DNA of 64,000 nucleotides from Bacilli bacterium (lineage in GTDB: Bacteria; Bacillota_I; Bacilli_A; ML615J-28; CAG-313): contig JAFQFT010000011.1 of NCBI GenBank assembly GCA_017398545.1, positions 31,429-95,428 of the forward strand, read 5' to 3'. Shown here piece by piece: positions 1,151 to 29,096 of this stretch. The notes under the pieces are model-generated. The model had not been told where the DNA came from, ran no database searches, and saw nothing but the letters and a program-made list of their open reading frames with translations. Each line of letters begins with the position of its first letter. Position 1 is the stretch's first letter. The position numbers and the translations under genes are program-made.

Positions 1151-1783
1151 TTATTTACCAATTTTCCATTTGTGTCCACAATTTTGGCAAACATTTATTG
1201 GTTTGCCACTACCAATAAATCCCCAAATAATAGAGTAACCTCTATTAATTGTAGCGATTGAAGGTGAAGCACATTTAGGGCAAGTTGGAATTCCTTTCTT
1301 ACTATATTCATTTCGTGTTCGGTCTAATTCATTCCTCCTACGTACCAATTCTGCTTGTTTTTTTTGCTTTTCTTCCTTTTGTAATTTATCTCTTTCTTGT
1401 TTCTCTTCGATTTCTTTTTGCTTTTTTTGTTGATATAGTTGAAAATCTTTTTTTGCTAACATATAATCGCTTATTTCAAAAATTGTACCGATAATAAATA
1501 TAATACAAAAAAACAAGCAAATCAATCCTAGAATAATAATTGACTGTATTCCAAAGATAAATCCAACAAATGATATTAAGGATATTAGTCCAAATTTTAA
1601 ACAATTGCTTAACTTGGGCATAGGAATTTCTTTTGAACAAGATTTAGTTATTTTATTTTCAGAACTTGAAGTAAGTTTAATATTATCAGTATCCATATCT
1701 ATGTGAGGTACGGAAATTCCACATTTATGACAAAATAAAGAATCTTCTGATAATTCTACTCCACACTTTTTACAAACTTTCAT
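1151..1783 (-). CDS. Zinc-ribbon membrane protein
   Basis: N-terminal CKKC/CHKC ribbon, two TM helices, coiled coil, C-terminal CPKC...CQNC ribbon; RBS AGGAGG. Confidence 0.75.
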   Translation of the reverse strand: MKVCKKCGVELSEDSLFCHKCGISVPHIDMDTDNIKLTSSSENKITKSCSKEIPMPKLSNCLKFGLISLISFVGFIFGIQSIIILGLICLFFCIIFIIGTIFEISDYMLAKKDFQLYQQKKQKEIEEKQERDKLQKEEKQKKQAELVRRRNELDRTRNEYSKKGIPTCPKCASPSIATINRGYSIIWGFIGSGKPINVCQNCGHKWKIGK

Positions 1784-2127
1784 ATATTGCTATCCTCCTA
1801 AAAATGAAATAACATGTTTAAACAAGATAAGTTATTTAAAAAATAAATTCATTATTACCATAATATAAATATTAACTCTATTTTAAATATAAGTAAAAAG
1901 AAAAAAATAACTTTTAATAATCCATTGTCTTTTAATATAAATAGCTAGATATTATCATTTTTTATAATAATATTTTAACATAACATTATAATTTTTTCAA
2001 TATTTTGACTATAAATAATATAATAAAAAATAATTAAATATTTAAATTATATTTTCTATAAAAATAAACTTAGTTCATTAAGTAGAAACTAATCGTTAAA
2101 AGTATTATAACTAATTTTTTGTTTTTG

Positions 2128-2301
2128 ATGTGCCAAAATTTTATTTTAGATTTACCCTAAAATAATGTACTAACTAGTATTTAAATCTAAATTAAGTATA
2201 TTGCATATGGGCTAATTAATATAGACCATACTGCAGCTATTTTCTTAACTTAAGTCACATTAAATACATTAGTTATTTATATTCATCATTTTGGATAACA
2301 A
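2128..2301 (-). repeat. Structured element copy A (putative ncRNA or cis element); strand tentative
   Basis: Core 2170-2301 aligns with 11387-11518; nested stems with compensatory changes. Confidence 0.7.
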
Positions 2302-2307
2302 ATTAAC

Positions 2308-2343
2308 AAAAATATTAGTCCTCTTTTAAGACTAATATTTTTT
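2308..2343 (-). terminator. Intrinsic terminator after the DUF3307 gene
   Basis: AAAAATATTAGTC...GACTAATATTTTT inverted repeat. Confidence 0.65.
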
Positions 2344-2347
2344 AAGA

Positions 2348-3088
2348 TTACTTAATAATTAATAAAGCTAATATCGCAATTATCAAACTAAATAATGTTC
2401 CAACTAAATACTTTTCAGCAAAATCTTTATCTTCTAATTGCTTAAACCTAGCAAGAGATTTTGCTGTTAAAACTAATGCAATCGAACCATACAAACCAAG
2501 TACACCCAAAAGTAATATTACTACTCTTTCTAACATTCCAATTAATGCACCTACATTATCTGACTCAACATTTTCACAAATATCTTTTTTATTAAAGATA
2601 TAATTAAAGAAATGTTTTATAAATACTGATGCTGGAGATAAAACAATTAAGAATGCTAAAATATAATTAATAATTATATTATGACCTATTTCTTTTAAAA
2701 ATGAAATATTATATACTGCATCACCTATAGAATTCAAATTTGATTTAATAACAAGTGAAATAGTTACCAGTAATAAAACATGTATAATTTGATCAACTAT
2801 AAAACTCCAAAATGAAAAAGCATTATTGTTAAATTTTTTTGTAATTTTAATTCTAAAATAATCAATTAAAAAATGTGAACCAAAAACTAAAAATGACCAA
2901 AAGATAATTTCCCAAATGTTTCCAAATAGTAACAATACTAAAGTAATCATTATAGTATAAATTAAACTATGTATAATAAGTCCTTTTATACTATTTTTCT
3001 TTTTTTCAACCAACTTAACAGGTTGCAAGAAAAAATCACCTATTAAATGAGCTATTAATAATAATTTTAGAATATCCATTTCTTTCAC
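2348..3088 (-). CDS. DUF3307-family membrane protein (SatE-like)
   Basis: AHLIGDFFLQ, HSLIY, HFLID, DQIIH motifs plus GALIGMLER...AKSLARF...AEKYLVGTL; GTGA overlap with satD. Confidence 0.85.
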   Translation of the reverse strand: MKEMDILKLLLIAHLIGDFFLQPVKLVEKKKNSIKGLIIHSLIYTIMITLVLLLFGNIWEIIFWSFLVFGSHFLIDYFRIKITKKFNNNAFSFWSFIVDQIIHVLLLVTISLVIKSNLNSIGDAVYNISFLKEIGHNIIINYILAFLIVLSPASVFIKHFFNYIFNKKDICENVESDNVGALIGMLERVVILLLGVLGLYGSIALVLTAKSLARFKQLEDKDFAEKYLVGTLFSLIIAILALLIIK

Positions 3089-3942
3089 CCCCTATATTCT
3101 TTTTTCATATATTCAAAAACCAAACATTCTAATTTTCTAATTTCATCAAATTTGCCTAAAGCCCTAATCTTTTCAATATTATGTCTACTTACTTTTAATA
3201 ACATTGAACAAACAGAATTTAATTTAGTTGCAAACCTTGGCCCAAATAATTTATGAAACTTTTCTTCTCTTCTAAAATAATTGTATCTGACTTCATCGAA
3301 TAACATATCTTTAATATCATTAGAAGTATTTTCATCAAAATCATAAGTCAATACATTTTGTTTTAATTTATCTATAATAAAGTTTGCAATTTTATTGATG
3401 TTTTGTCCTTCATATTTAATTTCTAATGGATATAACAAATTAAATAAATCAAAGACATCAGCTTGTCTATTTGTATGATCAAAATTAAGTAATTCAACAG
3501 TGCTCATTACTTGATTTACTAGGTTATCATTTACTTCATTACATGAATATAATAAAAAACCATATTTCTCAAATTTACAATCATTTAGTGCTGAAATAGC
3601 ATAATGATACGCTTCACCGTCAAACATATTTGTACTACGATAATCTTTTTCTAATATTCTTTGATTTAACATTCCGTATCCTATCCCACATCTAACTTGA
3701 TATGGATAAAATAAATTTCTTATAAAGCAATAACAACTAAAAGCATCAGAAACATCTTTAAATAATGCTTGAATAGAATCTCCAGATGAAAATTCAAATG
3801 ATTTCACTAATTCTTTTGAATAATATTCATTAATAAACTGAATGATAGAAAATAACTTATCTTGAATATAAAATCTTTGTTCATCATCATATGTTCTAGA
3901 ATGTTGTATATCTAAAATAATAGCAGCATAATTATTACTCAC
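3085..3942 (-). CDS. satD: SatD family protein (nucleotide-cyclase-like fold)
   Basis: YAAIILDIQHSR, GDSIQAL, VRCGIGYG, DGEAYHYA motifs; start moved to GTG 3942 behind RBS GAGGTGA. Confidence 0.8.
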   Translation of the reverse strand: MSNNYAAIILDIQHSRTYDDEQRFYIQDKLFSIIQFINEYYSKELVKSFEFSSGDSIQALFKDVSDAFSCYCFIRNLFYPYQVRCGIGYGMLNQRILEKDYRSTNMFDGEAYHYAISALNDCKFEKYGFLLYSCNEVNDNLVNQVMSTVELLNFDHTNRQADVFDLFNLLYPLEIKYEGQNINKIANFIIDKLKQNVLTYDFDENTSNDIKDMLFDEVRYNYFRREEKFHKLFGPRFATKLNSVCSMLLKVSRHNIEKIRALGKFDEIRKLECLVFEYMKKEYRG

Positions 3943-3960
3943 AGTATTCACCTCGCTATT

Positions 3961-4062
3961 ATTATATCATATTAAATATTAAAATGCAACCTAAATAAGT
4001 TGCATTTTTAATTTGCAACCTAAATAGGTTGCATTTCCGTTTTGCAACCGAAACAGGTTGCA
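3961..4062 (-). promoter_or_regulatory. satD promoter with three tandem 20-bp palindromic operators
   Basis: TGCAACC-N6-(A/G)GTTGCA at 3985-4004, 4014-4033, 4043-4062; TTGCAT-17-TATAAT with its -35 overlapping the first palindrome. Confidence 0.8.
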
Positions 4063-4090
4063 AACTGAAATTATAATCAAAACTAAATAC

Positions 4091-4187
4091 AAAAAAACCA
4101 CTACCTAGGATAGTGGTTTTATTATTCTAACTACTTAAAGCAGTAGAAACACCTGAAATGCAGGAGGTGCAAACACCTATAATTTAC
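4091..4187 (-). ncRNA. Candidate ~95-nt small RNA
   Basis: Lies between a consensus promoter and a terminator (AAAACCACTA...TAGTGGTTTT + T run); three hairpins; no ORF. Confidence 0.55.
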
Positions 4188-4193
4188 ATATAA

Positions 4194-4222
4194 ATTATAC
4201 CATTTTAGAAAGAAAATGTCAA
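4194..4222 (-). promoter_or_regulatory. Consensus sigmaA promoter
   Basis: TTGACA-17 bp-TATAAT with extended -10 TG. Confidence 0.8.
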
Positions 4223-4235
4223 TGTTTTCTCATTT

Positions 4236-4739
4236 TTATTCAAATGATTTAATTATATTTGAATTTTCATATATATAAATTTTTTTACTATTTGTTATCT
4301 TTCTATAATATTCTAAAGCCTTATCAGAATAAATTTTAACTGGAGGAATATAATATCCTTTTTTCTTTAGTCCATTATGTTCATAATTGATAACAGCAAC
4401 AGAAACAATATATATATTTTTTGAAGCATAATACTTTTTAAATTTCACGCTAATAGCATTTATATCAAGTTTAATTATTTTTTTATTCTTTATTTTCTTA
4501 AAACAAATACCTATACGAAAATAATATATTGATTTAATTATAAAAAATAAGAAAATCAAAAATAAAAAAGGAATTACAAAAAAATAAATTCTTTTAGCAT
4601 ATTTAAGGTCTTCGCTAGTCAATGCTAAAAATGCACATGCGATAATAAAAAATAAAGGAAGTAATGCTGTAAAAAAATAATTACTATAAATTTTCTTTAT
4701 TGTAATGTTATTTTTTATATTAATTGTTTTTTTTGACAT
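4236..4739 (-). CDS. Hypothetical basic membrane protein (2 TM)
   Basis: RBS AGGAGG, two hydrophobic segments. Confidence 0.6.
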   Translation of the reverse strand: MSKKTINIKNNITIKKIYSNYFFTALLPLFFIIACAFLALTSEDLKYAKRIYFFVIPFLFLIFLFFIIKSIYYFRIGICFKKIKNKKIIKLDINAISVKFKKYYASKNIYIVSVAVINYEHNGLKKKGYYIPPVKIYSDKALEYYRKITNSKKIYIYENSNIIKSFE

Positions 4740-4868
4740 ACACTTAACCTCCTAATATTTTATAGGTATTTTTTTAATATGATTAAACAAATATTTATTT
4801 AAAGTTTCGTTTTTTTTATTTTACCACATTATTAAATTATTTTCAATATTTCATAAAAAAATGAGCTT

Positions 4869-6479
4869 TTAATCTAAGCTCATTTCTATAAATTTATATA
4901 TAATTTTAATTTCTCTTGTTTTTTCTCCGTTAATTTCTTTTTTATATCCAATAACTATTCTTGAAACTAAATCATTTACCATATCTTGTGTTATTTTTAT
5001 TTCATCAATATATTAAAATGCAACATCTTTTAAATTTTTTAGTGAATCTTCAGTAACTGGAGATTTTTTTATTTCTTCTTCTAACTTTAAAATTTTATCT
5101 TTTAGTTCTTTTTGTTCACTTTTATACTCTCCTAATAATGTTTTATATGTGTCTATATCTATTAGTCTTGATGCATAGTCTTAATAAAGGTTTCTTATTA
5201 TTGTGATTAATGTAGTTTGTCTAGTTTTATATTTCTTTAATAATCCTTCATTTATGTTTAAATTAGTATTCTTTTTTAATTCTTCTTTTAATAATTCAAT
5301 TACTTCATCATTTCTTTTAACCGTTGATATAAAGCTTCTTAAGCTCTTATCTACAATTGTTTTAATTGTATTATATGTTATAGTATTTGATTTAGGACAT
5401 CTTGCTATATTATCACGATGTCTTTGGCATTTATAAAAACATCTTGAAGATCCAGTTCTTTCTTTTTGAGTTATTAAAACCATTCTTCCCCCACAGTTAG
5501 CGCAAAAGATTATTCCTTTAAAGAAATTTTCTGAATCATGAACTTTCTTTGTGCTTCTAGATTCAAGAATTTTTTGTACTTCATTAAACTCTTCTTGAGT
5601 TACTATTGGTTCATGTGTACCACATACAATTATTCTTTGATCTATTGGAACTTTTACTACTTTTTTTGTTTTATAGTTTTCTATTTCATACTTTCTATTT
5701 ACCATGTCACCAACATATACTCTATCTTTCAAGATTGCGTTAATTGTAGCTGGAATCCATACTCCACGTCTTTTAAATGTATTATCTTTTATATATCTAT
5801 CAAATCTTGTATCCCCATTTAATGATTTATAGGTTGCAGGATTAACAATATTTTCAGACATAAGAGTATTTGCAATAATCGTTGAACCTTTTTTGTCAAG
5901 TGCCATATCAAATATTTTTCTTACTACTTGTGCTGCTTCTGGATCAATAATAAGTTTATTTTTATTAGTAGGATCTTGTTTATAACCATATGGGGCTTGA
6001 GATGCGATAAAATATCCATTCATTGCTCTTTGACGCTTTGCTATTTTTATTTTTCTTGATAAATCTTTTGCATACATATCATTTAAGATATTTTTAAATG
6101 GAGCAATATCATTATTATTTGATAATGTATCTACATTATCAGTTATTGCAACATATCTTACATGTTTTGTTGGGAAGTATATTTCTGTATAATAACCAGT
6201 TTGAATATAATCCCTTCCAAGTCGTGATAAATCTTTTGTTATGACCATATTAATCTTCCCTATTTCAATATCAGATATCATTCTTTGAAATGAAGGTCTA
6301 TTATAATTTAAGCCTGAAAATCCATCATCAACATATATATCAATTATTTCTAAACTATGTTCTACACAATACTTCTCTAATATCATTTTTTGAGTAATGA
6401 TACTTTCAGAATCTCCTACATTTCCATCGTCACTTGAAAGTCTACAATAGAGTCCTACTTTGTAGATGTTATCAATCAT
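4869..6479 (-). pseudogene. Large serine recombinase (resolvase, recombinase, Zn-ribbon, C-terminal coiled coil) with two in-frame TAA stops
   Basis: YCRLSSDD, DDGFSG, KDLSRLGR, APYGY, HEPIV, CANCG motifs. The frame stays recombinase-like past TAA 5181-5183 and TAA 5013-5015 (LY*DYASRLID...LVSRIVIG...REIKIIYKFI) to a stop at 4869, overlapped by a hairpin. Confidence 0.85.
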
Positions 6480-6609
6480 TACTTTTTCCCCTTTTTATAA
6501 TTTTAGCTACAATTTTAGCAAGAAATGCTTCTAGCTTTTCAATATTATCAAATTCTTCTTTAATGATGTATTTAACACCATCTATATACATTACTTTATC
6601 TTTTTCCAT
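6472..6609 (-). CDS. Small TnpW-like protein upstream of the recombinase (45 aa)
   Basis: MEKDKVMYIDGVKYIIKEEFDNIEKLEAFLAKIVAKIIKRGKSND; RBS GAGGGAG; overlaps the recombinase start. Confidence 0.6.
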   Translation of the reverse strand: MEKDKVMYIDGVKYIIKEEFDNIEKLEAFLAKIVAKIIKRGKSND

Positions 6610-6677
6610 TGTGCTCCCTCATATAATCTCTATTCTACTTACATTATATGAAGGTGTAAGGTCAAATATTGTCCCTA

Positions 6678-7211
6678 TCAATTATAATATTTATCAATAT
6701 ATGCTTCTATTAAAATTTGATAAGCTTTATTTGGATGTTTTATTATACGGCCATATTCTTGATATAGTATTACTTGTGTAAATGCGTAAGCATCAATATC
6801 TACTTCCTTTGAGTTATATTCTACTAAAGACGCCTTATCATTTAGGTTAATTGGTGTAAAGTGATTAACTAGTACATTCTCCCATCTTTTGTGTCTATCT
6901 GTTTCATGATCTCTTGCTTTATAGATTTAGTATACGTGTCTTAACTCATGAGCAATAGATTTAAGACATTCTTTATGATTGTACAAGTATTTTCTATTGA
7001 TTTCAATATGTGCTGGATATTCTAAAACTAATCTACTGTCAACACTTAAGTTTTCAAAACATATTGGTAGTGCTTCTACTCCTAAGAATACTGAGATATT
7101 TATACAGTCTTTTACAAGTACTTCTTCTTCCTCCCAGTGATCTTCTCTAAAATTTTTAATGGACTTTTTTTTAGTTCTTCATCATTATATAGTTTTTTCT
7201 TTATTAATCAT
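6678..7211 (-). pseudogene. HExxH metallopeptidase (ImmA/IrrE-like) pseudogene
   Basis: SIAHELRHVY*IY...EVDIDAYAF; in-frame TAA at 6927-6929 and a frameshift in an A8 run near 7165-7172. Confidence 0.7.
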
Positions 7212-7316
7212 ATCCCTGACCTTCATTTCTATAAACATTTTTGTGACACTTACATTAACTAATCTTAAATTTCATATTATAATTAAAGTAATATTTTATA
7301 TATATAGGGATTTGTT

Positions 7317-7811
7317 ATGAATAGATTAAAAGAATTAAGAGAAGAAAAAAATTTATCAACTAGAGGTCTTGCAGCAATGGTTGATATTAATCATATGGCC
7401 ATTAATTATTATGAGAATGAAAAAAGAGATTTTAATACTACTGCATTAAAAACTCTTTCTATATTCTTTGATGTGACAATAGATTATCTTCTTTGTCATA
7501 GTAGTTATTATTTATTTGTTAATTATCATAATATTATGTTAAAAGTTAATGAAGAAGATTATAAGTTACTATATAAAGATGGATTTATATATTTTGATAA
7601 TAATAAAAGATATATTAATTTAAATAAACTTATAGGATTAGATAATGATAATGATTTATTTGATTTTATAATTGATTTATATAGACACAAGAGATTAGAT
7701 GGATTGTTTGATAAGAATGATACATCTATATTTGAAAAAAATAATGATGTTGTAGAGATTATATTAGATAAAGAATTTATAGAATATATGAAGAAATCAT
7801 TAGAGTTATAA
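7317..7811 (+). CDS. Xre/Cro HTH repressor (ImmR-like)
   Basis: MNRLKELREEKNLSTRGLA...YENEKR...FFDVTIDYLL; divergent from the peptidase. Confidence 0.85.
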   Translation: MNRLKELREEKNLSTRGLAAMVDINHMAINYYENEKRDFNTTALKTLSIFFDVTIDYLLCHSSYYLFVNYHNIMLKVNEEDYKLLYKDGFIYFDNNKRYINLNKLIGLDNDNDLFDFIIDLYRHKRLDGLFDKNDTSIFEKNNDVVEIILDKEFIEYMKKSLEL

Positions 7812-7870
7812 TGGAAAGAGAGATCTTTCCTTTATTTTGCCTTCTCCTATTAATTTCATTAATCCATAAA

Positions 7871-7913
7871 AACACTCCGCAAGCCCTTTTTTTTCAAGTG
7901 CTTGCGGAGTTTG
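7871..7913. terminator. Likely bidirectional terminator between convergent genes
   Basis: ACTCCGCAAGC...GCTTGCGGAGT stem. Confidence 0.65.
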
Positions 7914-7914
7914 T

Positions 7915-8148
7915 CTAATCATTTTTATTATTTTGTTTTTTCACTAATGCTCTACCTCTTAAATATATCAAAGTACCAATTGTTTCAACAATAACAAACA
8001 AAAACAATACTCCCAAATATTGTCGTAGACTAGCTTTTTCATATATACTTTCAATCAGCCAAAATAAGCTAATTATAGGACCACTTATCCATAATAATTT
8101 TCCTGAAAAAATATATATAACTCCAAATGAAGAATTTAAATCTTTCAT
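7915..8148 (-). CDS. Small 2-TM membrane protein
   Basis: RBS GGAGG, two hydrophobic helices, 25 bp downstream of the large gene. Confidence 0.65.
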   Translation of the reverse strand: MKDLNSSFGVIYIFSGKLLWISGPIISLFWLIESIYEKASLRQYLGVLFLFVIVETIGTLIYLRGRALVKKQNNKND

Positions 8149-8173
8149 ATAGCCTCCGCTTTCATGTTTTAAA

Positions 8174-11140
8174 TTAGATAACAGTTATTGCTATTGTACC
8201 GATATAACTATCGTCGTATTTATTTATGCATGTTATAGTTACAGTTCCTTTAGAAACACCATGTACTATACCATAAATATCCACAGTGGCAATAGAATTA
8301 TCACTGCTAGTCCAAACATAATCTTGCCTTATATTAGTAGGCCCACCTGATACAATGCATATACTACGTGTATATCCAACATGAACTGTTGTTTCTCCTG
8401 CATTACCACCTAATTTCGAATATTCTGTTCCGTTTAATGATTCATCAACATTGGAATCAGTTGTTAGCGAAACAATTGAAGTTGATCCAGCCTTTTCATA
8501 AACTATAATTTCAAGTGTAGCTACATGGTTAAGGTTATATTTATCTGTTACCCTTATAATAGTACTTCCAACCTTCTTCGCAAAAACAGTTCCGAATGCA
8601 CTTACTGTGGCAACAGACGGATCTGTACTCATCCATACGTAATCGTTATATCTTGAATCAAATTCAGCATCATTTCCTAGATATAATACTCTTGTAAAAC
8701 CTATCGCTATAGTATTATAATATCTATCTCCATTATTAACAGTAACTTCTGTTCCCAATCCTGTTGTTTCTGTAGCGTAATCAGTTTCAGTTGTTATTGT
8801 AAAAGAATACGCTGGACATTCCTCAATAAAGAATGTATAATCTATTAAATCGTTGCCATTAAAATATCCAAAATACAATATATCGCCTTTTAGCAGCTGT
8901 ATATCTAAACTAATTGTTAATTTTGAAACATTACATTTGATAAAATTTTCCAAGGTCAATGAATTATCATGTAATTTATACACAACAAAAATCATATTAT
9001 TTTGCGTTTGACCATTATTAGTAAAACTATAACTTACTTTATAGTTGCTATTATACGGAATATTAACAAATGATAGTTTATCTCCGATATTTGATGCTAA
9101 TTTGTATTCTTCACTTAATTGATACTCTTCCTGTACATTTAATAAATTATAATGTATTTCACCACTTGATGGAATATTAAACCTTACATAATAATAATTT
9201 CCTTTTTCTAGAAAAACATTAATACTACTGAAATTTTGAATAGAAATAGCATCATTTGTATAACTTTCAATACTAAATTTATCTATAATATTCATTCCTT
9301 CATCATATATTTCAAAACCAATTGGGATTTCAATAGAATTATTTATACTATACATTTCCATTGTATATAAATCATCTTGTGTACAATAAATTTTTATAAT
9401 ACTTTCATTACTACCTGATAGAATATAATCATTTAATATTATTTCCTTTGTACTTGTGATTTGAAACGGTTTTATTGACACATCATATGCTCGAGAATTT
9501 TGTGGAAAATGTCCTATTTCCACCTCAAAGTAATATTTTTTTTCTTTATCAAAAATAAAAGATACAGTTCCATAATTAGATGCTACTACTTTATCATTTT
9601 CATATAATTTTATTGTAGAATGTGTTGGGACACTTATGGTATAATATCCTGAATACTCAGGCGTAAAGGAAAAACTATCATATTTTCCATCTTGTATCAT
9701 ATAACCTCTTGTTTTCTCAAAAATAGTAACATTTTTATGTTGCTTTTTACCTAATAATAAATTAAAAGATGATGTTGCAATACCAATTTCTTCAAATGAA
9801 TCATTTGATTCATTAGCATATGAAATTTGAATTCTTGAACCATATGTTAAGTAAGCTTCACTTTTTGAAACACTATCCAAATCCCAATGATAACTGATAT
9901 AGTTGTACTCAGGAAATCCTAAATCATCATAAGTTATTGGTCTAAATACTAGTGCATTATTATTATTACTTGTTATACTTTTTGCATCAATTTTCCATAA
10001 ACTATTGTTTTTATCAATTTGCTCTGTTCTTCCACCTAAATTATAATCACTTGGGTTATTATTTAATTCCTTCAATTCATATCCAATATGAGTATCACCT
10101 ATTTTGTAATCAAGAACAACATAACAATCGTACACTATTTGACCAATATCCAAGGCCTTACCAATTTTTGGGTTTATCATTCCAATACCTTCCAATAAAA
10201 TATTAGCTTTTGATTGATTGGCAGTTTGTAAATCAACATTAACTGAGGATATTCCATATCCACTATATAATGCATATGAACGATTAATAATATAACCAGA
10301 ATCTAAATTGACATCATAAGTAGAATCAAATACATTATTCATATGTGCATTTGTTATATTAACAAAAGCAAATGAATCCTTAATAGCATATAAATCTTTA
10401 TTTGGTTGAGTTTCCTCATAATTTTGTTGATATACATAACCATATATACATGATTCCTTTTCATCAGTAGGTTTAGGAAGTGGAATTACGACATCAGAAT
10501 AAGATGAATACGCCTCACTATCTAAACTTAACTTAAAATTTTCAATAACAATTTCACTGTTATTATAAAATATATATTCACTCAAGTAAATAAATGTAAA
10601 AACATATAAAGGTGTAATCGTATATGTGAACTCTTCTTCACTTAGATTATATATAGCTTCTATATCATAAATAAATACATCAACTAAATTTGCAGTTTTT
10701 AAATCACCATTAGAAGAGTAAGCTTTAGTATTAACGAAAAATCCATATTCTTTCCCTGTATATGTATATATTCCTCTATGAATAAATAATTCCTTAGGTA
10801 CTAAATATATAATAGGATCATCTCCATGTATAGTAGCGTTACCATTTGAAAAAATAGTAGGCTTTTTAGTATAATCCATATAAAAGCCACAAAAAGAATG
10901 CCTTGGATCGTTATAATTATGAACATTTACATTATAAAAATCCGCCCACTCTGGAATATCTTTACTATTAGTATAATCATCATAATCACCTTCAGTAATT
11001 GTTAAACTTGTATTCATCTTATCTAAGACGCTTGATTCAGTTGGTGTAGAAACACTTGCATGAACATCAAAATTACTAACTGAAACAAACACAATTACTA
11101 TTAATGTAAAAATTATAATAACTTTTAAAATTTTTTTCAT
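8174..11140 (-). CDS. Large secreted protein with two C-terminal Big_2 Ig-like domains
   Basis: Signal peptide (MKKILK...VHA); repeats YVWMSTDPSVATVSAFGTV and YVWTSSDNSIATVDIYGIV; RBS AGGAGG. Confidence 0.8.
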   Translation of the reverse strand: MKKILKVIIIFTLIVIVFVSVSNFDVHASVSTPTESSVLDKMNTSLTITEGDYDDYTNSKDIPEWADFYNVNVHNYNDPRHSFCGFYMDYTKKPTIFSNGNATIHGDDPIIYLVPKELFIHRGIYTYTGKEYGFFVNTKAYSSNGDLKTANLVDVFIYDIEAIYNLSEEEFTYTITPLYVFTFIYLSEYIFYNNSEIVIENFKLSLDSEAYSSYSDVVIPLPKPTDEKESCIYGYVYQQNYEETQPNKDLYAIKDSFAFVNITNAHMNNVFDSTYDVNLDSGYIINRSYALYSGYGISSVNVDLQTANQSKANILLEGIGMINPKIGKALDIGQIVYDCYVVLDYKIGDTHIGYELKELNNNPSDYNLGGRTEQIDKNNSLWKIDAKSITSNNNNALVFRPITYDDLGFPEYNYISYHWDLDSVSKSEAYLTYGSRIQISYANESNDSFEEIGIATSSFNLLLGKKQHKNVTIFEKTRGYMIQDGKYDSFSFTPEYSGYYTISVPTHSTIKLYENDKVVASNYGTVSFIFDKEKKYYFEVEIGHFPQNSRAYDVSIKPFQITSTKEIILNDYILSGSNESIIKIYCTQDDLYTMEMYSINNSIEIPIGFEIYDEGMNIIDKFSIESYTNDAISIQNFSSINVFLEKGNYYYVRFNIPSSGEIHYNLLNVQEEYQLSEEYKLASNIGDKLSFVNIPYNSNYKVSYSFTNNGQTQNNMIFVVYKLHDNSLTLENFIKCNVSKLTISLDIQLLKGDILYFGYFNGNDLIDYTFFIEECPAYSFTITTETDYATETTGLGTEVTVNNGDRYYNTIAIGFTRVLYLGNDAEFDSRYNDYVWMSTDPSVATVSAFGTVFAKKVGSTIIRVTDKYNLNHVATLEIIVYEKAGSTSIVSLTTDSNVDESLNGTEYSKLGGNAGETTVHVGYTRSICIVSGGPTNIRQDYVWTSSDNSIATVDIYGIVHGVSKGTVTITCINKYDDSYIGTIAITVI

Positions 11141-11345
11141 TATACAACCTCCTTGTATATGCTATGTGCATAATTTAAAGCTCATCTTCACCAAAATAAT
11201 CAAATGTTTTTCCCCTATTTAATTCTAAATACTTTAAGGTAATTATTAGAAATATTTTTAAAGTATGAGTTATATGTTTATTATATCATATTTATTACAT
11301 AAAAAAAGAAAAAAATAAATTATTTTTTTAGGATTTTATTCTTAT

Positions 11346-11518
11346 TGTGCCTAACTATCACCTTAAATTAGTAATTAAATAATATCCTAACTAACCTTTA
11401 AACTTAAGTTAAGTACGCTGCATAGGGGCTAATTAGTATAGTCCCTATTGCATCATTTTCCTTAACTTGCGGCACATTAAATATATTAGTTATTTATAAT
11501 CATCATTATGGATAACAA
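11346..11518 (-). repeat. Structured element copy B (putative ncRNA or cis element); strand tentative
   Basis: Homologous to 2128-2301; TGTGCC...GGCACA closing stem spans the same 131 nt. Confidence 0.7.
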
Positions 11519-11541
11519 TATGTGAACTGGGAAGAGTCCCG

Positions 11542-11676
11542 TTTCAACCTAACTATGGATATGGATGTTGTCAACAACAAACTACTTCTTGTGGTAGCAA
11601 CTTTGGTGGTTATGGCTACGCTTTAATTCTAGTATTATTCATTTTATTAGTAATTATCGGTACTGCAAGATGGTAA
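11542..11676 (+). pseudogene. YjcZ/SscA-family sporulation peptide lacking its start codon
   Basis: FQPNYGYGCCQQQTTSCGSNFGGYGYALILVLFILLVIIGTARW*; family signature ALIxVLFILLxIxG; no in-frame ATG or RBS; terminator 11685-11711. Confidence 0.75.
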
Positions 11677-11731
11677 TAAAATTTAAAAGGGAGCTTTATG
11701 CTCCTTTTTTTAATAATTAATTTAAGTATTT

Positions 11732-11790
11732 AAAAAAGTGGCGGGGAAATTCCCCGCCTTTCAGTTGACCAAGACCTTCCGGTCAGCCCA
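11732..11790 (-). other. GC-rich double hairpin (possible sRNA plus terminator)
   Basis: GACC-GGAA-GGTC followed by GGCGGGGAA-T-TTCCCCGCC and a T run on the minus strand. Confidence 0.45.
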
Positions 11791-11953
11791 AAAAGTAATA
11801 TTACATTTATATATTTTATCATATCATAAATATTAAAATAAATCATCATATTTATGAACTTTTATTTTAACATTTATATTTAGTTTTACAATTAAAATAA
11901 TTAATATTTAACTGATATAAATCATACCTAAATATTGTTTAAAAGAACTTGTA

Positions 11954-12823
11954 TTAAATTACTATTGATTCACTTATCGAAAATATTTTTTTTCCTAAAT
12001 CTTTAATTGAATGTCCTAAATGATATAAACTATTTTGATCTATTATAATATATCTATCATGAACCTTAGTAGTATATCTAACGTTCAAACCCCCATACTG
12101 ACTGTTAAACGCATTAATATCAATACCTAACAATCTTGAATTTATACTAGTATAAATAATAACTTGAACATTGTTTTTCTTTACTACTAATCTATCAAGT
12201 ATTGTTCTATCTACATAATTATCAATTATTATAATTTCGTTATTGGCTTTTTCAATTAGCGATTGTACAAATGCATACGCATCATAAATCTCTCCATCAA
12301 AAAATAATTGTGAATTTTTAAATTCATGAGGCTTGTACTCTTTTTCAATACAACTAACTCTTTCATCTAAAGATTCGACTTTATTAATCAATTTAACATA
12401 ATTTTCATTAGTAACTAATGATCTTTCTTCATTTATAACATAACCTTTTAATAGATATTCCTTTAATACATTATTAGCCCATTTTCTAAATATTACTCCC
12501 ATTATTGAGTTAACTCTATATCCAACCGAAATAATTACATCTAAATTAAATAATTTTATGTCTACTTTTGTTTTTCTCATCTTTCCAGTACGTGGATCAT
12601 ATTTATTTAGCTCAGTTGCAAAAAATGCAACACAGCTATTTTCATCTAATTCATTTATTTGAAATATATTTTTTATATGTCTTGAAATAACAGATTTATC
12701 TCTCTCAAACAACAAAGCAATTTGATCTAATGAAAGCCATATCGTATTTTCAAAAGGAGATACCTTAACATCTATTTCCAAATTATTATTATTAAACTTT
12801 ATTATTTCATAAATTTCCTTCAT
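11954..12823 (-). CDS. RhuM-family protein with C-terminal PLD-like domain; probable terminal frameshift
   Basis: TIWLSLDQIALLFERDKSVISRHI, NLDVIISVGYRVNS, FRKWA, HDRYIIID...LGHSIKDLGKK; another frame continues SNLIQVLLNNI* to 11928. Confidence 0.85.
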   Translation of the reverse strand: MKEIYEIIKFNNNNLEIDVKVSPFENTIWLSLDQIALLFERDKSVISRHIKNIFQINELDENSCVAFFATELNKYDPRTGKMRKTKVDIKLFNLDVIISVGYRVNSIMGVIFRKWANNVLKEYLLKGYVINEERSLVTNENYVKLINKVESLDERVSCIEKEYKPHEFKNSQLFFDGEIYDAYAFVQSLIEKANNEIIIIDNYVDRTILDRLVVKKNNVQVIIYTSINSRLLGIDINAFNSQYGGLNVRYTTKVHDRYIIIDQNSLYHLGHSIKDLGKKIFSISESIVI

Positions 12824-13124
12824 GTGTTCCCTCCATTAATTCTACCCCTCTTAAAATAACATCTAATTCAGTATTTAACGCACTTGCATATTTAACTAAA
12901 AAGAATATAGTTGGTGAATTACTCATGTTTTCAAATCTAGTAATTTGTTGACGCATTACACCCATTTTTTCAGCAATCTCTTGTTGAGTGTAACCGGATT
13001 TTTCTCTTAAAAATATAAATTGCATTACTATTTTAGCTCTAAGCCATAGTTCTTGTTCTTCGATTGCCATTTCTTTTAATTCATTATGATTGTAAATTTC
13101 TAACACTTTATTTAAATTTTTCAT
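12807..13124 (-). CDS. Xre HTH protein (HigA antitoxin-like)
   Basis: LREKSGYTQQEIAEKMGVMRQQITRFENMSNSPT. Confidence 0.75.
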   Translation of the reverse strand: MKNLNKVLEIYNHNELKEMAIEEQELWLRAKIVMQFIFLREKSGYTQQEIAEKMGVMRQQITRFENMSNSPTIFFLVKYASALNTELDVILRGVELMEGTHEGNL

Positions 13125-13415
13125 ACTTACACCTCAATTGTATTGTATCATATCTTTACAATCTTCGCAACATTTTTGTTTCATTATATTAAAAAATCTA
13201 ACTTAGATATAGATATGTAATTTAACCTAATATACTACAAAAATTTCCTGATCATAAAAATATACTAACTTATATAAACTTGCAATTTGCGTTTTTAGCA
13301 AATTCCCTTATGTATTAATTTTTTATCATTTAATACATCTACTTTAAATTTTTCAATTGCTAACTTCTCTCTTATAAAAATAAAACTAGGTATTCTATTT
13401 TTATCAATAAAATGT

Positions 13416-13493
13416 TTTCAACCTAACTATGGCTACGCTTTAATTCTAGTATTATTCATTTTATTAGTAATTATCGGTACTGCAAGATGGTAA
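13416..13493 (+). pseudogene. Second, internally deleted YjcZ-like fragment
   Basis: Identical to 11542-11676 except a 57-bp deletion between TATGG repeats; ATG at 13412 is out of frame by one extra T; terminator 13504-13530. Confidence 0.75.
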
Positions 13494-13592
13494 TAATTTA
13501 ATTAAAAAGGAGCAGTTGCTCCTTTTTTTTGTTATTTTTTTTTACAAATTAATAATAATATGATATAATATATCCATAAAGAGGTGATTTAT

Positions 13593-22384: not shown

Positions 22385-24868
22385 TTATTCACGCTCTGTT
22401 TCTTCCATAATGAAGCATTCTAAGCGGTCTCCAACTTTAACATCATTAAAGTGTTCAATAGTAATACCACAATCGTATCCTTCTTTTACTTCTTTAACGT
22501 CTTCTTTAAAACGTCTAAGACCTGCTATCTTACCTGTATAAATAACAATACTATCACGAATTACTCTAATAGTTCCACCTCTTACAATTGTTCCTCTAGT
22601 TACCATAGAACCAGCAATTGTCCCAATTCTAGAGATTTTGAATAATTCACGTACTTCTGCTTCACCTGTAACTTTTTCTTCAAATACTGGATCAAGCATA
22701 CCTTTAGCTGCTTTTTCAATATCTTCTTGTAATTTATAAATAATATTATATAAACGAATTTCAACATTCTTTTCTTTTGCAAGGTCACTAATTTGACTTG
22801 TAGGACGAATATTAAAGCCAACAATAATTGCATGAGATGCGATAGCAAGACTTATATCATTATCAGTAACACCACCAACACGAGCACTAATAATATTAAT
22901 CTTAGTTCCTTCAATTTGAATCTTATCAACTAAACCTTTAATTGCTTCAATAGAACCCTGAACATCACACTTAATGATTAAGTTTAGTACTTTTAACTCA
23001 CCATTTGCTTCAGACATAATTTCATTTAATGATGCAGCTCTTGCAGAACCCATTTCTTCATTAAATTTATTTTGAGCACGTACTTCAGCAATGGCTCTTG
23101 CTTTTCTTTCATCATCTAATGCCATGAATTTTTCACCAGCAAATGGAACTTCTGCAATACCAGTAATTTCAACTGGTTTAGCAGGACCAGCTACTTTAAC
23201 TTGACGACCAAGTTCATCTTGCATTGCACGTACACGACCATAAGTTGTACCTACAACAATCATGTCACCAACTTTTAAAGTACCATTTTGAACAAGAAGT
23301 GTTGCAACAGGACCACGACCTTTATCAAGTCTTGCTTCAATTACAGTACCAATTGCTAAACGTTTAGGATTAGCTTTATATTCATTCATATCACTTGTTA
23401 AAATGACCATTTCAAGTAAGTCATCAACACCTTTACCTGTAAGTGCTGAGATTGGAACAAAAATAGTATCCCCACCCCATTCTTCAGCAATAAGGTTATA
23501 AGACATTAATTCTTGTTTTACACGATCAGGATTGGCAGTTGGTTTATCCATTTTATTAATCGCAACAATAATTGGAACACCAGCAGCTTGAGCATGTTCA
23601 ATAGCTTCTTTTGTTTGAGGCATCATACCATCATCAGCAGCAACTACTAGAATAACAATATCAGTAACTTGTGCACCACGAGCACGCATTTCAGTAAATG
23701 CAGCATGCCCTGGAGTATCAATAAATGTAATTAAACGACCATCTTTTTGAACTTGATAAGCCCCGATATGTTGTGTAATACCACCAGCTTCACCACGAAC
23801 AACGTGACTACTTCTAATTGTATCTAAAAGTGTAGTTTTACCATGGTCAACGTGACCCATAATTGTAACAATAGCAGGACGTGGTTCTAAGTCTTCAGGA
23901 CTGTCTTCAATTTCAATTTCATCAAATCTGATTAAATCAGTAATTTGTTTATCTTTTACTTCAAAGTTATATTCCATTGCGATAAGTTCAATAGTATCTC
24001 TATCTAATGTTTGAGTTGCAGATGCAAAAATACCCATTGAAGTAAATAACTTTTTAACTAAATCAGTTACAGAAATTCCAAGTTCTTCAGCAACATCCAT
24101 AACAGTCATATTAAGTTCATAATAAAGAACATTTTCTTCTTTCTTTTGTTCAATAGTACCAGCTAATTTTTCAGCACGACTCTTATGTTGTTTAGGTTTC
24201 TTACTAACAACTTTATCTCTAGTACTAACTTTTGGTTTAATTCTATTATTTCCTCCACCTTCATAATGACCATCTTCTAAGAATTCATCATATTTATCTA
24301 AGAATTCTTCATCTACTAATGTTTCAACAATTTCATCTTTATAAGATGGAATATCACTAGGACGTGGTTTAGAATTAGATTTATTGTTATTGTTATTGTT
24401 GTTATTATTATTTCCTTGTTTACCTGGTTGTTTATTTTCTGGTTTATCTTGTTTTGATGGTTGTTTATTTTCTGGTTTACCAGGTTGTTTGTTTTCCGAT
24501 TTGCCTTGTTTTGATGGTTGTTTATTTTCTGGTTTACCTTGTTTTCCAGGTTGTTTATTTTCTTGTTTTCCAGGTTGTTTATTTTCTGGTTTTACATTAC
24601 TAGCACCAGATTGTTTATTTTCAGGTTTACCAGCTTTTCCAGCATTATCAGGTGCTGCTTGTTTACTAGGTGCTGGTTTTGGTGCTACTGGTTTAGCTTT
24701 AGTTTTAAATGGATAAGGTACTCCATAATGTTTAGCTAATTTCTTTTCTAAATTTTTATCAAGATCACTTTCTTCTGTATATGTTTGTCCAACAGCAACA
24801 TTTTTTAATAATTTTAATAAATCTGCAGTTGACACCTTTAAGAATTCCGCTACTTCTTTAACTTTCAT
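22385..24868 (-). CDS. infB: Translation initiation factor IF-2
   Basis: [32 protein letters not shown]. Confidence 0.97.
24381..24632 (-). repeat. Coding tandem repeat ([11 protein letters not shown]) plus poly-Asn inside infB
   Basis: About seven ENKQ units followed by an Asn run. Confidence 0.85.
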
Positions 24869-27278: not shown

Positions 27279-28940
27279 ATGTATAATTTAAAACTTAATA
27301 ACAAAATAATAAGCTTTAAACCAGGTAATAAAGTACTCGACTTAATTGATAAACAAGAAGTAAAACAATACATGGTTTGTAAAATTGATCAAACGATTAA
27401 AGAACTTACATATCCTCTATCAGAAAAACATAATAACTCTGAAATTACACTTTTAACACTTGAACATCAAGAAGCTGGTAGAGCATATGAAGCAACACTT
27501 AGATATATAATATCTATGGCTTTTGCAAACCTATATCCAGAAATTGATATTAAATTTAATTACAATGTAAGTAGATCAATATTCTGTGAAGTTCTAAATT
27601 CAGGAATTAAAATGAGTAAAATTACTGACGAAGTATTAAAAGAAGTTAAAAGATTAATCGATTTAGATTTACCTATTGAAAGAGTAACACTAACTGTTAA
27701 AGAAGCAATTGAAATCTACAAAGAACTTCGCCATGATGATAAACTTAATATCTTAGAATATCGTCCAGACAAAATAGTTCACTTATATAAATGTGAAAAC
27801 TATTATGATTATATGTATTGTTATATGTTACCATCAACTGGTTTTATTAAGAGCTATTGTATAAGACCATATAGTCCTGGATTAATAATTCAGTATCCAA
27901 GATATGAACTAGATGCCAAAATTCCGGAATTCCTTGAAGAGCCAACATATGGAAGAACACTAAGAGAAGCAGGTAAATGGGGAAAAATTAGCAAAACAAA
28001 TTCTATCGTTAAAATTAACAAAAAAATAGAATGCGAAAACATTACTGACTTTATTCAAACATGTGAAATGAAACACAATAACATGCTTGCAGAACTCGGA
28101 AGTAATATCAAAAAAGAAATAGAAAACATTAGACTTATCTGTATAGCAGGACCTTCATCAAGTGGTAAAACGACATTCTGTAATCGTCTAAGAATAGAAC
28201 TTATGTCAAGAGGTATAACTCCTATTATGATATCTATGGATGACTATTATTTAACAAAACCTGAAATCGCAAAAATCCAAGGAAAAACAGATATTAAAGA
28301 TTTAGACTTAGAACATATCAACTGTTTAGATATTGAACTATTTAATCAAAATTTATTTGATCTAATCAATGGTGAAGAAGTAACACTTCCAAAATATAAC
28401 TTTAAAACAGGTAAAAGAGAATCAGGCAAAACACTTAAAATTAGTGATTCTACACCTATTATGATAGAAGGAATTCATGCCCTTAATGAACTACTTACAG
28501 CATCAATTCCTAAACATCAAAAATATAAAGTATATATTGCACCACAAATACAAATCAATATTGATGATCATTCTCCACTTTCTACAACTGACTTAAGATT
28601 AATAAGAAGAATAGTAAGAGATATGGAGTTTAGAAACTGCCCGCCTGAGGAAACAATTTCAATGTGGCAAAGCGTAAGAAACGGTGAATTCAAATGGATT
28701 TATCCAAACCAAGAAGGAGCTAACTTTGTATTTAATAGTGAACTAACATATGAACTTGCAGTATTTAAAAAATATGCACTTCCTGCGCTATCTAACATAC
28801 CACAATCAGATCCTTCATATATTACCGCAAACAGACTAATCAAATACTTAAAATACTTTAAAGACATAACTGATGAATCAGCAATCCCATGTAATTCCTT
28901 AATTAGAGAATTTATTGGTGGATCATGTTTTAAAGTGTAA
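27279..28940 (+). CDS. Uridine/nucleoside kinase with ThrRS-like N-terminal domain
   Basis: IAGPSSSGKTT, SMDDYY, EGIHALN, RLIRRIVRD, EFIGGS. Confidence 0.9.
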   Translation: MYNLKLNNKIISFKPGNKVLDLIDKQEVKQYMVCKIDQTIKELTYPLSEKHNNSEITLLTLEHQEAGRAYEATLRYIISMAFANLYPEIDIKFNYNVSRSIFCEVLNSGIKMSKITDEVLKEVKRLIDLDLPIERVTLTVKEAIEIYKELRHDDKLNILEYRPDKIVHLYKCENYYDYMYCYMLPSTGFIKSYCIRPYSPGLIIQYPRYELDAKIPEFLEEPTYGRTLREAGKWGKISKTNSIVKINKKIECENITDFIQTCEMKHNNMLAELGSNIKKEIENIRLICIAGPSSSGKTTFCNRLRIELMSRGITPIMISMDDYYLTKPEIAKIQGKTDIKDLDLEHINCLDIELFNQNLFDLINGEEVTLPKYNFKTGKRESGKTLKISDSTPIMIEGIHALNELLTASIPKHQKYKVYIAPQIQINIDDHSPLSTTDLRLIRRIVRDMEFRNCPPEETISMWQSVRNGEFKWIYPNQEGANFVFNSELTYELAVFKKYALPALSNIPQSDPSYITANRLIKYLKYFKDITDESAIPCNSLIREFIGGSCFKV

Positions 28941-29096
28941 CTAATAATAGAATAAAATAGGGCAGTCGTTAACTGCCCAATTTTATTTGAAATAACAATA
29001 TTTACTAATAAGACTATATTTACAATTTGGACAGATAGCATCTAGCCGATTTTAATCTAAAAAATAAAACCTATAATAGACTTAAACTATTATAGG

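Follow-up and report, generated by a model that had tools for sequence, protein, structure and literature searches.

Composite islands of the staphylococcal cassette chromosome (SCC) type carry a large serine recombinase, insert serially at the end of the rlmH/orfX gene and leave repeated copies of their target behind. The leaders of ermC, aprE and S-layer genes reportedly act as 5′-terminal stem-loops that stabilise or process Gram-positive mRNAs. Here, we characterised a 185-nt repeat, hereafter the module, in a stretch of 64,000 nt from the genome of a Bacilli bacterium (assembly GCA_017398545.1, contig JAFQFT010000011.1, positions 31,429 to 95,428 of the forward strand); this whole stretch is called the window, its source genome G000 and a congener that also carries the module G032. 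The best reading of the repeat is that it forms the conserved inner right end of a small family of integrative islands that pile up in tandem at a YjcZ-family gene (yjcZ). By analogy, the locus as a whole most resembles SCC-type composite serine-recombinase islands. A serine recombinase, a single target gene and tandem accretion are features of both, and the target copies are here an intact yjcZ, a copy without two codons and a 69-nt 3′ copy. Unlike SCC, the target is a YjcZ-family gene entered at its 5′ end, and the recombinase is only ~50% identical to its nearest relatives in the order. To our knowledge, SCC elements do not carry a 185-nt hairpin module at the end of each unit.

In all three intact copies, the minus-strand module is followed by a co-directional operon of unrelated genes, mostly of defence. 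Our tentative view is that, on the minus strand, the module serves the outermost cargo operon as its promoter-proximal region and as a structured 5′ leader. The known elements that it would work most like are the 5′ stem-loop leaders of Gram-positive mRNAs: a stable hairpin stands near the presumed 5′ end of a long leader, before a secreted-protein gene as well as other operons, independent of what is encoded downstream. No sequence relation to those leaders is known and, unlike them, the module is fixed in a mobile island and reused before unrelated cargo.

Extent, fold and conservation of the module

The original prediction described a 131-nt element in two copies. Both lie where it placed them, but the homology is wider, at 185 nt, and the genome holds three copies. 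The two in the window are built as follows, with their parts in minus-strand order.

11334..11518, minus strand: copy B, 185-nt module at the right end of the large island (repeat finder, model R1 and folding)
11516-11477, minus strand: conserved flank of copy B
11476-11471 and 11351-11346, minus strand: 5′ and 3′ halves of the closing stem of copy B
11468-11406, minus strand: hairpin of copy B
11405-11352, minus strand: poorly conserved linker of copy B
2117..2301, minus strand: copy A, 185-nt module at the right end of the inner island unit
2299-2260, minus strand: flank of copy A
2259-2254 and 2134-2129, minus strand: closing stem of copy A
2251-2189, minus strand: hairpin of copy A, with one G.U pair
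2188-2135, minus strand: linker of copy A

Copies A and B are 77% identical without gaps and lie 9217 nt apart (repeat finder). Within G000 the pair gave E = 1.2e-34 by BLAST, and chance is therefore excluded as the source of the repeat. The third copy, C, is located 2.4 kb upstream of the window, at C6:28864-28968 by BLAST or 28874-29036 by covariance model, and is decayed: its hairpin has lost 12 nt from the 5′ arm, and little of the flank is left. The single copy in G032 is 86% identical to copy B over 177 nt (BLAST) and scored 196.3 bits with model R1 (173 positions, 26 pairs), next to 197.8 bits for copy B and 178 bits for copy A. Homology between copies ends no more than ~12 nt past the closing stem, where the cargo begins.

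The closing stem (TGTGCC/GGCACA, with one mismatch in copy A whichever strand is read) is accompanied by an interrupted 63-nt hairpin of 8 + 4 + 5 + 3 pairs and a 7-nt loop, in which an asymmetric internal loop (8 nt vs. 5 nt) shifts two nested inverted repeats against each other. A double change in the hairpin (UAUGG/CCAUA in copy A vs. UAGGG/CCCUA in copy B) and a change from G-C to G.U are present, as are the stem and long hairpin, all as originally described. The inverted repeat GTTAT-N18-ATAAC, which had also been reported, occurs in the flanks of copies A and B but is imperfect in G032 (GATAT...ATAAC). The hairpins of the three intact copies are far more stable than mononucleotide shuffles, with minus-strand z values of -4.4, -5.0, and -8.1 and plus-strand values of -3.0, -5.4, and -7.1. 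That of copy C, whose cargo is deleted, folds no better than shuffles (z +0.7). For the whole 131-nt core the contrast with shuffles was less marked (minus strand, z ~ -2.1; plus strand, -1.5 and -3.6). Another candidate hairpin, located in the linker, was discarded because it did no better than shuffles (z -1.3 to +0.4).

When copy B of G000 was compared with the module of G032, identical bases were found at 51/52 paired positions (98%), 37/40 flank positions and 7/7 positions of the apical loop, as against 40/54 in the linker and 58/79 over all unpaired positions of the core. As a neutral yardstick from the same two genomes, third codon positions of mscL were identical at 136/200 (68%), and two flanking intergenic stretches at 80% and 84%. 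Paired positions were better conserved than unpaired ones in both G000 vs. G032 (Fisher p = 9e-5) and copy A vs. copy B (p = 2e-5), a contrast somewhat inflated by deriving the pairing from the sequences under test. Across comparisons, identity ranged from 92 to 98% in the stems, 90 to 92% in the flank and 63 to 74% in the linker; the 40-nt flank, rather than the structured core, is the best conserved part. By this measure, the stems and flank are clearly held above the neutral level, and the linker is not.

These values bear on the possibility that the module is a relic without present function, a trace of the shared ancestry of island ends that is kept by recent descent or as homology for the exchange of cargo between strains. 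The family is tiny: with model R1, the module is found in 2 of the 106 genomes of the order (G000 counted), with all copies at one chromosomal locus. Copy C shows that decay does happen, the island recombinase is short, and the island of G032 has no recombinase match. Neutral decay would be even, however, whereas conservation of the module is strongly uneven, and we consider a relic quite unlikely.

The reach of the family was delimited by several searches. Model R1, run over 49 genomes of the family and then the 106 of the order, returned the four copies (A, B, C, and that of G032) and nothing further, and BLAST over the 49 family genomes gave, besides G000 and G032, five genomes with matches of 23-32 nt only. 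Two patterns matched in the genome-contig collection only within the G032 contig and had 0 matches in viral contigs. A 21-mer seed retrieved 11 loci from metagenome contigs, ten matching over 21-24 nt around the seed and one over 34 nt at 88%, and these are chance seed matches. The plasmid collection held no match at E up to 0.01, and three records of the phage collection matched, over 34 nt only. At four loci that hold relatives of the XRE protein of the islands, model R1 with filters off reached a best E of 0.42. Against Rfam 15, the whole window gave a single match at gathering thresholds; it belongs to DUF3800-XI (11743-11790) and does not touch the element. When 1800-2400 and 11100-11900 were searched at E up to 10, no match overlapped the core, and the best match overlapping the flank was a snoRNA model at 21.8 bits vs. 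a threshold of 80. The earlier statement that the element matches no recognised riboswitch agrees with this run, at gathering thresholds and at E up to 10. The 185-nt element exists, is under constraint and carries no annotation; two related genomes are the only ones to have it, and a function is proposed below.

The module at the island junction in yjcZ

The islands enter a YjcZ-family sporulation gene near its codon 3; the neighbours of this gene are UPF0223 and mscL. G034 and G039 have an empty site, with UPF0223, yjcZ and mscL adjacent. In G000, an intact 45-aa YjcZ-family gene (C6:28666-28803; TIGR01732, E = 9e-10) stands upstream of the window, after the UPF0223 gene, and further yjcZ sequence lies to the right of copy B, including a 69-nt 3′ piece at 13428-13496. 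From the empty sites together with the yjcZ copies it follows that the DNA from the intact yjcZ to 11544 is inserted and that the module is island-borne. The module is missing from the empty sites of G034 and G039 and from G031, which has only a small island of 1.75 kb, 98.6% identical to window 11680-13430.

The order in G000 begins with yjcZ and a terminator, copy C, a C-terminal XRE remnant, a 72-aa gene, a 206-aa gene, an AAA_15 ATPase, a zinc-ribbon membrane protein and copy A. It continues with a terminator-like hairpin, DUF3307, SatD, a 167-aa gene, the serine recombinase and XRE, and then a 77-aa gene, the 988-aa Big_2 gene, copy B, a 26-nt spacer and the truncated yjcZ′. In G032 the order is yjcZ, a broken XRE gene, a 93-aa gene, kinase, methylase, restriction enzyme, Dam, DUF4209, module, spacer, yjcZ′ and mscL. 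The main features of the window are as follows.

1151..1783, minus strand: 210-aa zinc-ribbon membrane protein, first gene after copy A, followed by the AAA_15 ATPase and the 206-aa protein beyond the window start
2316..2345, no strand assigned: two-way terminator-like hairpin TTAGTC-N9-GACTAA with T runs (by eye), which ends the DUF3307/SatD/recombinase operon before copy A (minus strand)
5181..6479, minus strand: large serine recombinase, 432 aa, with Resolvase, Recombinase and Zn_ribbon_recom domains
7317..7811, plus strand: XRE-family helix-turn-helix regulator, of which a truncated second copy adjoins copy C
8174..11140, minus strand: 988-aa Big_2-domain protein, first cargo gene after copy B, with its start codon 194 nt past the module
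11519..11544, no strand assigned: junction spacer of ~26 nt between module and yjcZ′, ~80% alike in G032 (counted by eye)
11545..11679, plus strand: yjcZ′, without the first two codons and ribosome-binding site, 94.8% identical to the intact gene over 193 nt

The yjcZ′ copy is the displaced chromosomal part at the right junction of the island. The module adjoins the att junction in both G000 and G032, and 22-26 nt separate it from the displaced copy of yjcZ. For copy B, the distance from 11518 to the start of the truncated gene (11541-11545) bears out the ~23 bp originally given. A contig from the DNA run X14 joins codon 3 of yjcZ to the end of DUF3307 via 114 other letters, and the recombinase island therefore also exists alone at the yjcZ site in another strain. 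The locus is a serial accretion of related islands at one target, with one module per unit at its right end. Of the proposed terminal cis element, then, the position stands: the module is island-borne, lies at the right end of the unit beside the att junction and is absent from empty sites. The left copy of yjcZ is intact and the displaced copies have no 5′ end, so that the islands appear to bring a replacement gene body. In those parts of the literature retrieved by the gene name yjcZ only, we found no description of a YjcZ-family gene as an integration target.

A constant place beside the junction, with one copy at the same end of each tandem unit, would also suit a cis site acting as DNA next to attP. 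Such a palindrome could be bound by a recombination accessory protein, by a repressor such as the XRE protein of the island, or by a transfer or packaging function supplied in trans, making it oriT-, pac- or operator-like. The stems, apical loop and flank are kept as sequence and not through covariation, the fold is equally good on either strand, and the XRE gene is the other conserved part of the islands, all of which fit such a site. Large serine recombinases, however, need short att sites only, without long arms. An attP of such an enzyme is a ~50-bp site in which two inverted half-sites surround a central dinucleotide at the crossover; the 185 nt of the module are far longer, and the quasi-palindrome GTT-TC-AAC that spans the junction at 11541-11548 (by eye) lies outside the module. 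The island proteins scanned included no relaxase, Rep or terminase, and the module resembles no plasmid and matches phages over 34 nt only. The asymmetric internal loop, too, is more in keeping with a single strand that folds than with duplex DNA bound by a dimer. Moreover, G032 retains 51 of the 52 paired bases although its island has no recombinase match and a broken XRE gene, which weakens an XRE operator in particular. We therefore regard a DNA site as possible, though unlikely.

Other classes of hairpin-forming elements fit less of what was found. Integron attC sites likewise form hairpins between blocks of unrelated cargo, but the units here are whole islands with their own regulator gene and target copy, and sequence, not structure alone, is conserved. 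No tyrosine integron integrase was found, the sole recombinase being the serine recombinase (Pfam). There was no reverse transcriptase domain, as expected of a retron msr-msd, in the 20 flanking and island proteins scanned (Pfam); for an oriT, no relaxase was found among the scanned proteins and no plasmid match at E up to 0.01. A terminator scan of 10900-11800 reported no intrinsic terminator, a G+C-rich stem with a U run directly after it, within 11334-11518.

The module as a proposed cargo leader

On the leader reading, a promoter, and perhaps an operator as well, would reside in the 40-nt flank, with a start of transcription just ahead of the closing stem, and the mRNA would bear the interrupted 63-nt hairpin close to its 5′ end. 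The most likely role of the hairpin would then be that of a portable 5′ stem-loop: irrespective of the cargo, it would protect the transcript, process it or bind a regulator. The analysis shows where the module lies, its origin in the islands, selective constraint on its stems and flank, and an RNA-library contig that continues from the cargo gene into it; strand, start site and hairpin function are inferred.

Half or more of the sampled words of 10900-11700 occur in 16 sequencing runs without an RNA label; with the RNA runs included, 20 runs from 10 studies contain them. In the metatranscriptome run X17, a single 3295-nt contig, at depth 46 and with 37 other letters, covers L072 11582-14869, which equals window 8154-11441. 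It spans the whole 988-aa gene, the region upstream and the 3′ 108 nt of the module, and ends inside the hairpin; neighbouring bins past the module have a depth of 0.2-4. A contig from the DNA run X5 crosses the same place unbroken (L072 14548-14983), so the stop in X17 is not an assembly effect of the palindrome. This suggests that transcription begins upstream of 11441, within the flank or immediately ahead of it. Stretches of L072 that have no RNA cover, copy A among them, are uninformative, and joints with sides of fewer than 50 letters were ignored. Window 8154, the common left end of the RNA contigs, was considered as a transcript end and rejected, since a contig of a second RNA run from the same study, X18, continues there with unlike letters.

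The same contig bears on another reading, in which the module is a small RNA gene in its own right, ~130-170 nt long, that lies on the minus strand and acts in trans. Such an RNA would fit the closed domain made by the closing stem and the hairpin with its conserved loop, and, with no Rfam match, it would be new. By eye, however, no intrinsic terminator follows the closing stem on the minus strand of any copy, which makes a separate small RNA unlikely. In addition, the RNA-library contig is continuous with the downstream gene, and the linker, a third of the length, is neither conserved nor significantly folded. Taken together, we judge a small RNA gene very unlikely. A plus-strand terminator was likewise rejected: the UUUUC tract is short and lies 2-4 nt past the stem (by eye), there is no plus-strand gene to end, and the terminator scan did not report one. 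Of the proposed non-coding RNA or leader, the lack of an Rfam family, the lack of a terminator of its own and the one RNA contig running from the gene into the element are in keeping with a leader, but the transcription evidence is weak.

Several observations weigh against the leader reading. X17 is the only RNA run to reach the module, cover in X18 ending at window 11253. Contigs of run X14 diverge from the window at ~11255, and some strains therefore carry the 988-aa gene behind a different upstream sequence. Assembled contigs give neither strand nor true ends, and RNA libraries can hold DNA. A promoter scan found TTCCCA-17-CATAAT at 11533-11505, one of 6 sites in total where 5.9 are expected by chance; G032 has TTCTCA-17-CATAAT at the corresponding place (by eye), and in copy A the -35 part falls outside the homology. 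Neither the scan nor reading of the sequence gave a convincing sigma-70 promoter in the flank. A perfect extended -10 (TGATATAAT) occurs at 11288-11280, between the module and the 988-aa gene (by eye), and may be the main promoter of that gene. The lack of a good flank promoter is the weakest link of the leader reading.

The fold gives little help with the strand. Hairpin energies on the minus vs. the plus strand are -13.5 vs. -17.5 kcal/mol for copy A, -22.9 vs. -20.8 for copy B and -28.4 vs. -29.3 for G032, and folding energy picks no strand. The change from G-C to G.U, which had been taken to favour the minus strand, is present, but it amounts to one G.U pair in an intact copy (A.C on the plus strand, with none the reverse), and energy is neutral; copy C adds three vs. 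one. Nor is covariation significant among the four sequences: 2 of 26 pairs are doubly changed, one of them only in the decayed copy C. The observed count of doubly changed pairs was reached by 57/500 shuffles and the covariation score by 40/500, and with four sequences the argument first drawn from the compensatory changes does not stand up statistically. Conserved stem sequence fits a DNA site equally well.

Another way for the hairpin to act on RNA is suggested by sib of phage lambda, an RNase III hairpin that lies across attP from int and serves in retroregulation. By analogy, the hairpin could be a sib-like retroregulator that senses the physical state of the island. In a circle or tandem, minus-strand transcripts of the recombinase operon would cross att into the flank and hairpin, and an RNase III-type cut there would alter the fate of the recombinase message; in an island integrated alone, the same sequence would head the cargo transcript. 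The long interrupted hairpin just across att from a recombinase operon is shared with sib, and it would form the 3′ end of the operon transcript only in a circle or tandem, the position in which copy A lies now. Today, copy A follows the recombinase, the 167-aa gene, SatD, DUF3307 and a terminator-like hairpin, in that order. Unlike at sib, that terminator-like hairpin intervenes between operon and module, and the enzyme is a serine recombinase that is not the last gene of its operon. We consider a sib-like role highly improbable, and return to the leader reading below.

Cargo, neighbouring genes and implications

The cargo that the leader would serve differs from copy to copy. The module of G032 is followed by DUF4209/PDC-S39, a Dam methylase, a type II restriction enzyme, an N4/N6 methylase and a PD-T4-6-like kinase. 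Matches to models of known or candidate defence systems within the cargo comprise a PD-T4-4/HEC-02-like ATPase, PDC-S39, type II restriction-modification, a PD-T4-6 kinase and PDC-S05. The N-terminus of the 988-aa protein resembles a signal peptide (by eye). The copies had been placed upstream of minus-strand envelope-protein genes: minus-strand genes do follow them, but "envelope" is only loosely right for a Big_2 protein and a zinc-ribbon membrane protein.

Among relatives of the island recombinase in the order, open frames of 520-560 aa prevail. At 432 aa the enzyme looks C-terminally short, and, judged from its length, it may be inactive. These relatives are at most 53% identical to it over the full query and 58-69% over partial matches only, and none of them was shown to sit at yjcZ. 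Divergent from the XRE gene, a frame at 6678-7178 (minus strand) with one in-frame stop at 6927-6929 and an HELRH motif gives an ImmR/ImmA-type layout. An ImmA-like protease was rejected, the frame being broken and neither half matching Pfam. The XRE gene of G032 (L039 7766-8249) has ATA for a start codon and an in-frame TAA and looks like a pseudogene, with the module at the other end of its island intact. On another contig of G032 (L073 11087-18319), a second XRE-like C-terminal domain, 79% identical to residues 47-164 of the window XRE protein, adjoins an open frame of 2410 aa; this locus holds no copy of the module.

To the right of yjcZ′, a mini-island of 1.75 kb (11680-13427) carries a RhuM/PDC-S05-like gene and an XRE gene, has no integrase and lies between perfect direct repeats, 69 nt each, of the 3′ end of yjcZ (11611-11679 and 13428-13496). 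Its identity to the small island of G031 is accompanied by only ~91-93% in the flanking DNA, which suggests recent transfer. The match to DUF3800-XI RNA (RF02975; 11743-11790, minus strand; 45.9 bits, threshold 37.8) is located in the mini-island, directly 3′ of the RhuM-like gene, and coincides in part with a terminator-like GGCGGGG...CCCCGCC hairpin; its surroundings showed no DUF3800 gene. Elsewhere in the window, 24- and 33-nt units (TTTTCTGGTTTACC... type) form a tandem array at 24411-24614, which is probably a minus-strand coding region rich in repeats. The window has a very high A+T content, and the standard code suits it well.

The restriction of the module to two related genomes, and a function known by inference, limit its wider interest. 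The locus nonetheless illustrates clearly how islands accrete serially in a single tiny gene and how an apparently island-borne copy restores that gene. If the module is indeed a portable promoter and leader, it would show how an integrative island secures the expression of any cargo it acquires, here mostly candidate anti-phage systems, and it would provide a compact, selection-tested 5′ element for uncultured low-G+C gut Bacilli.

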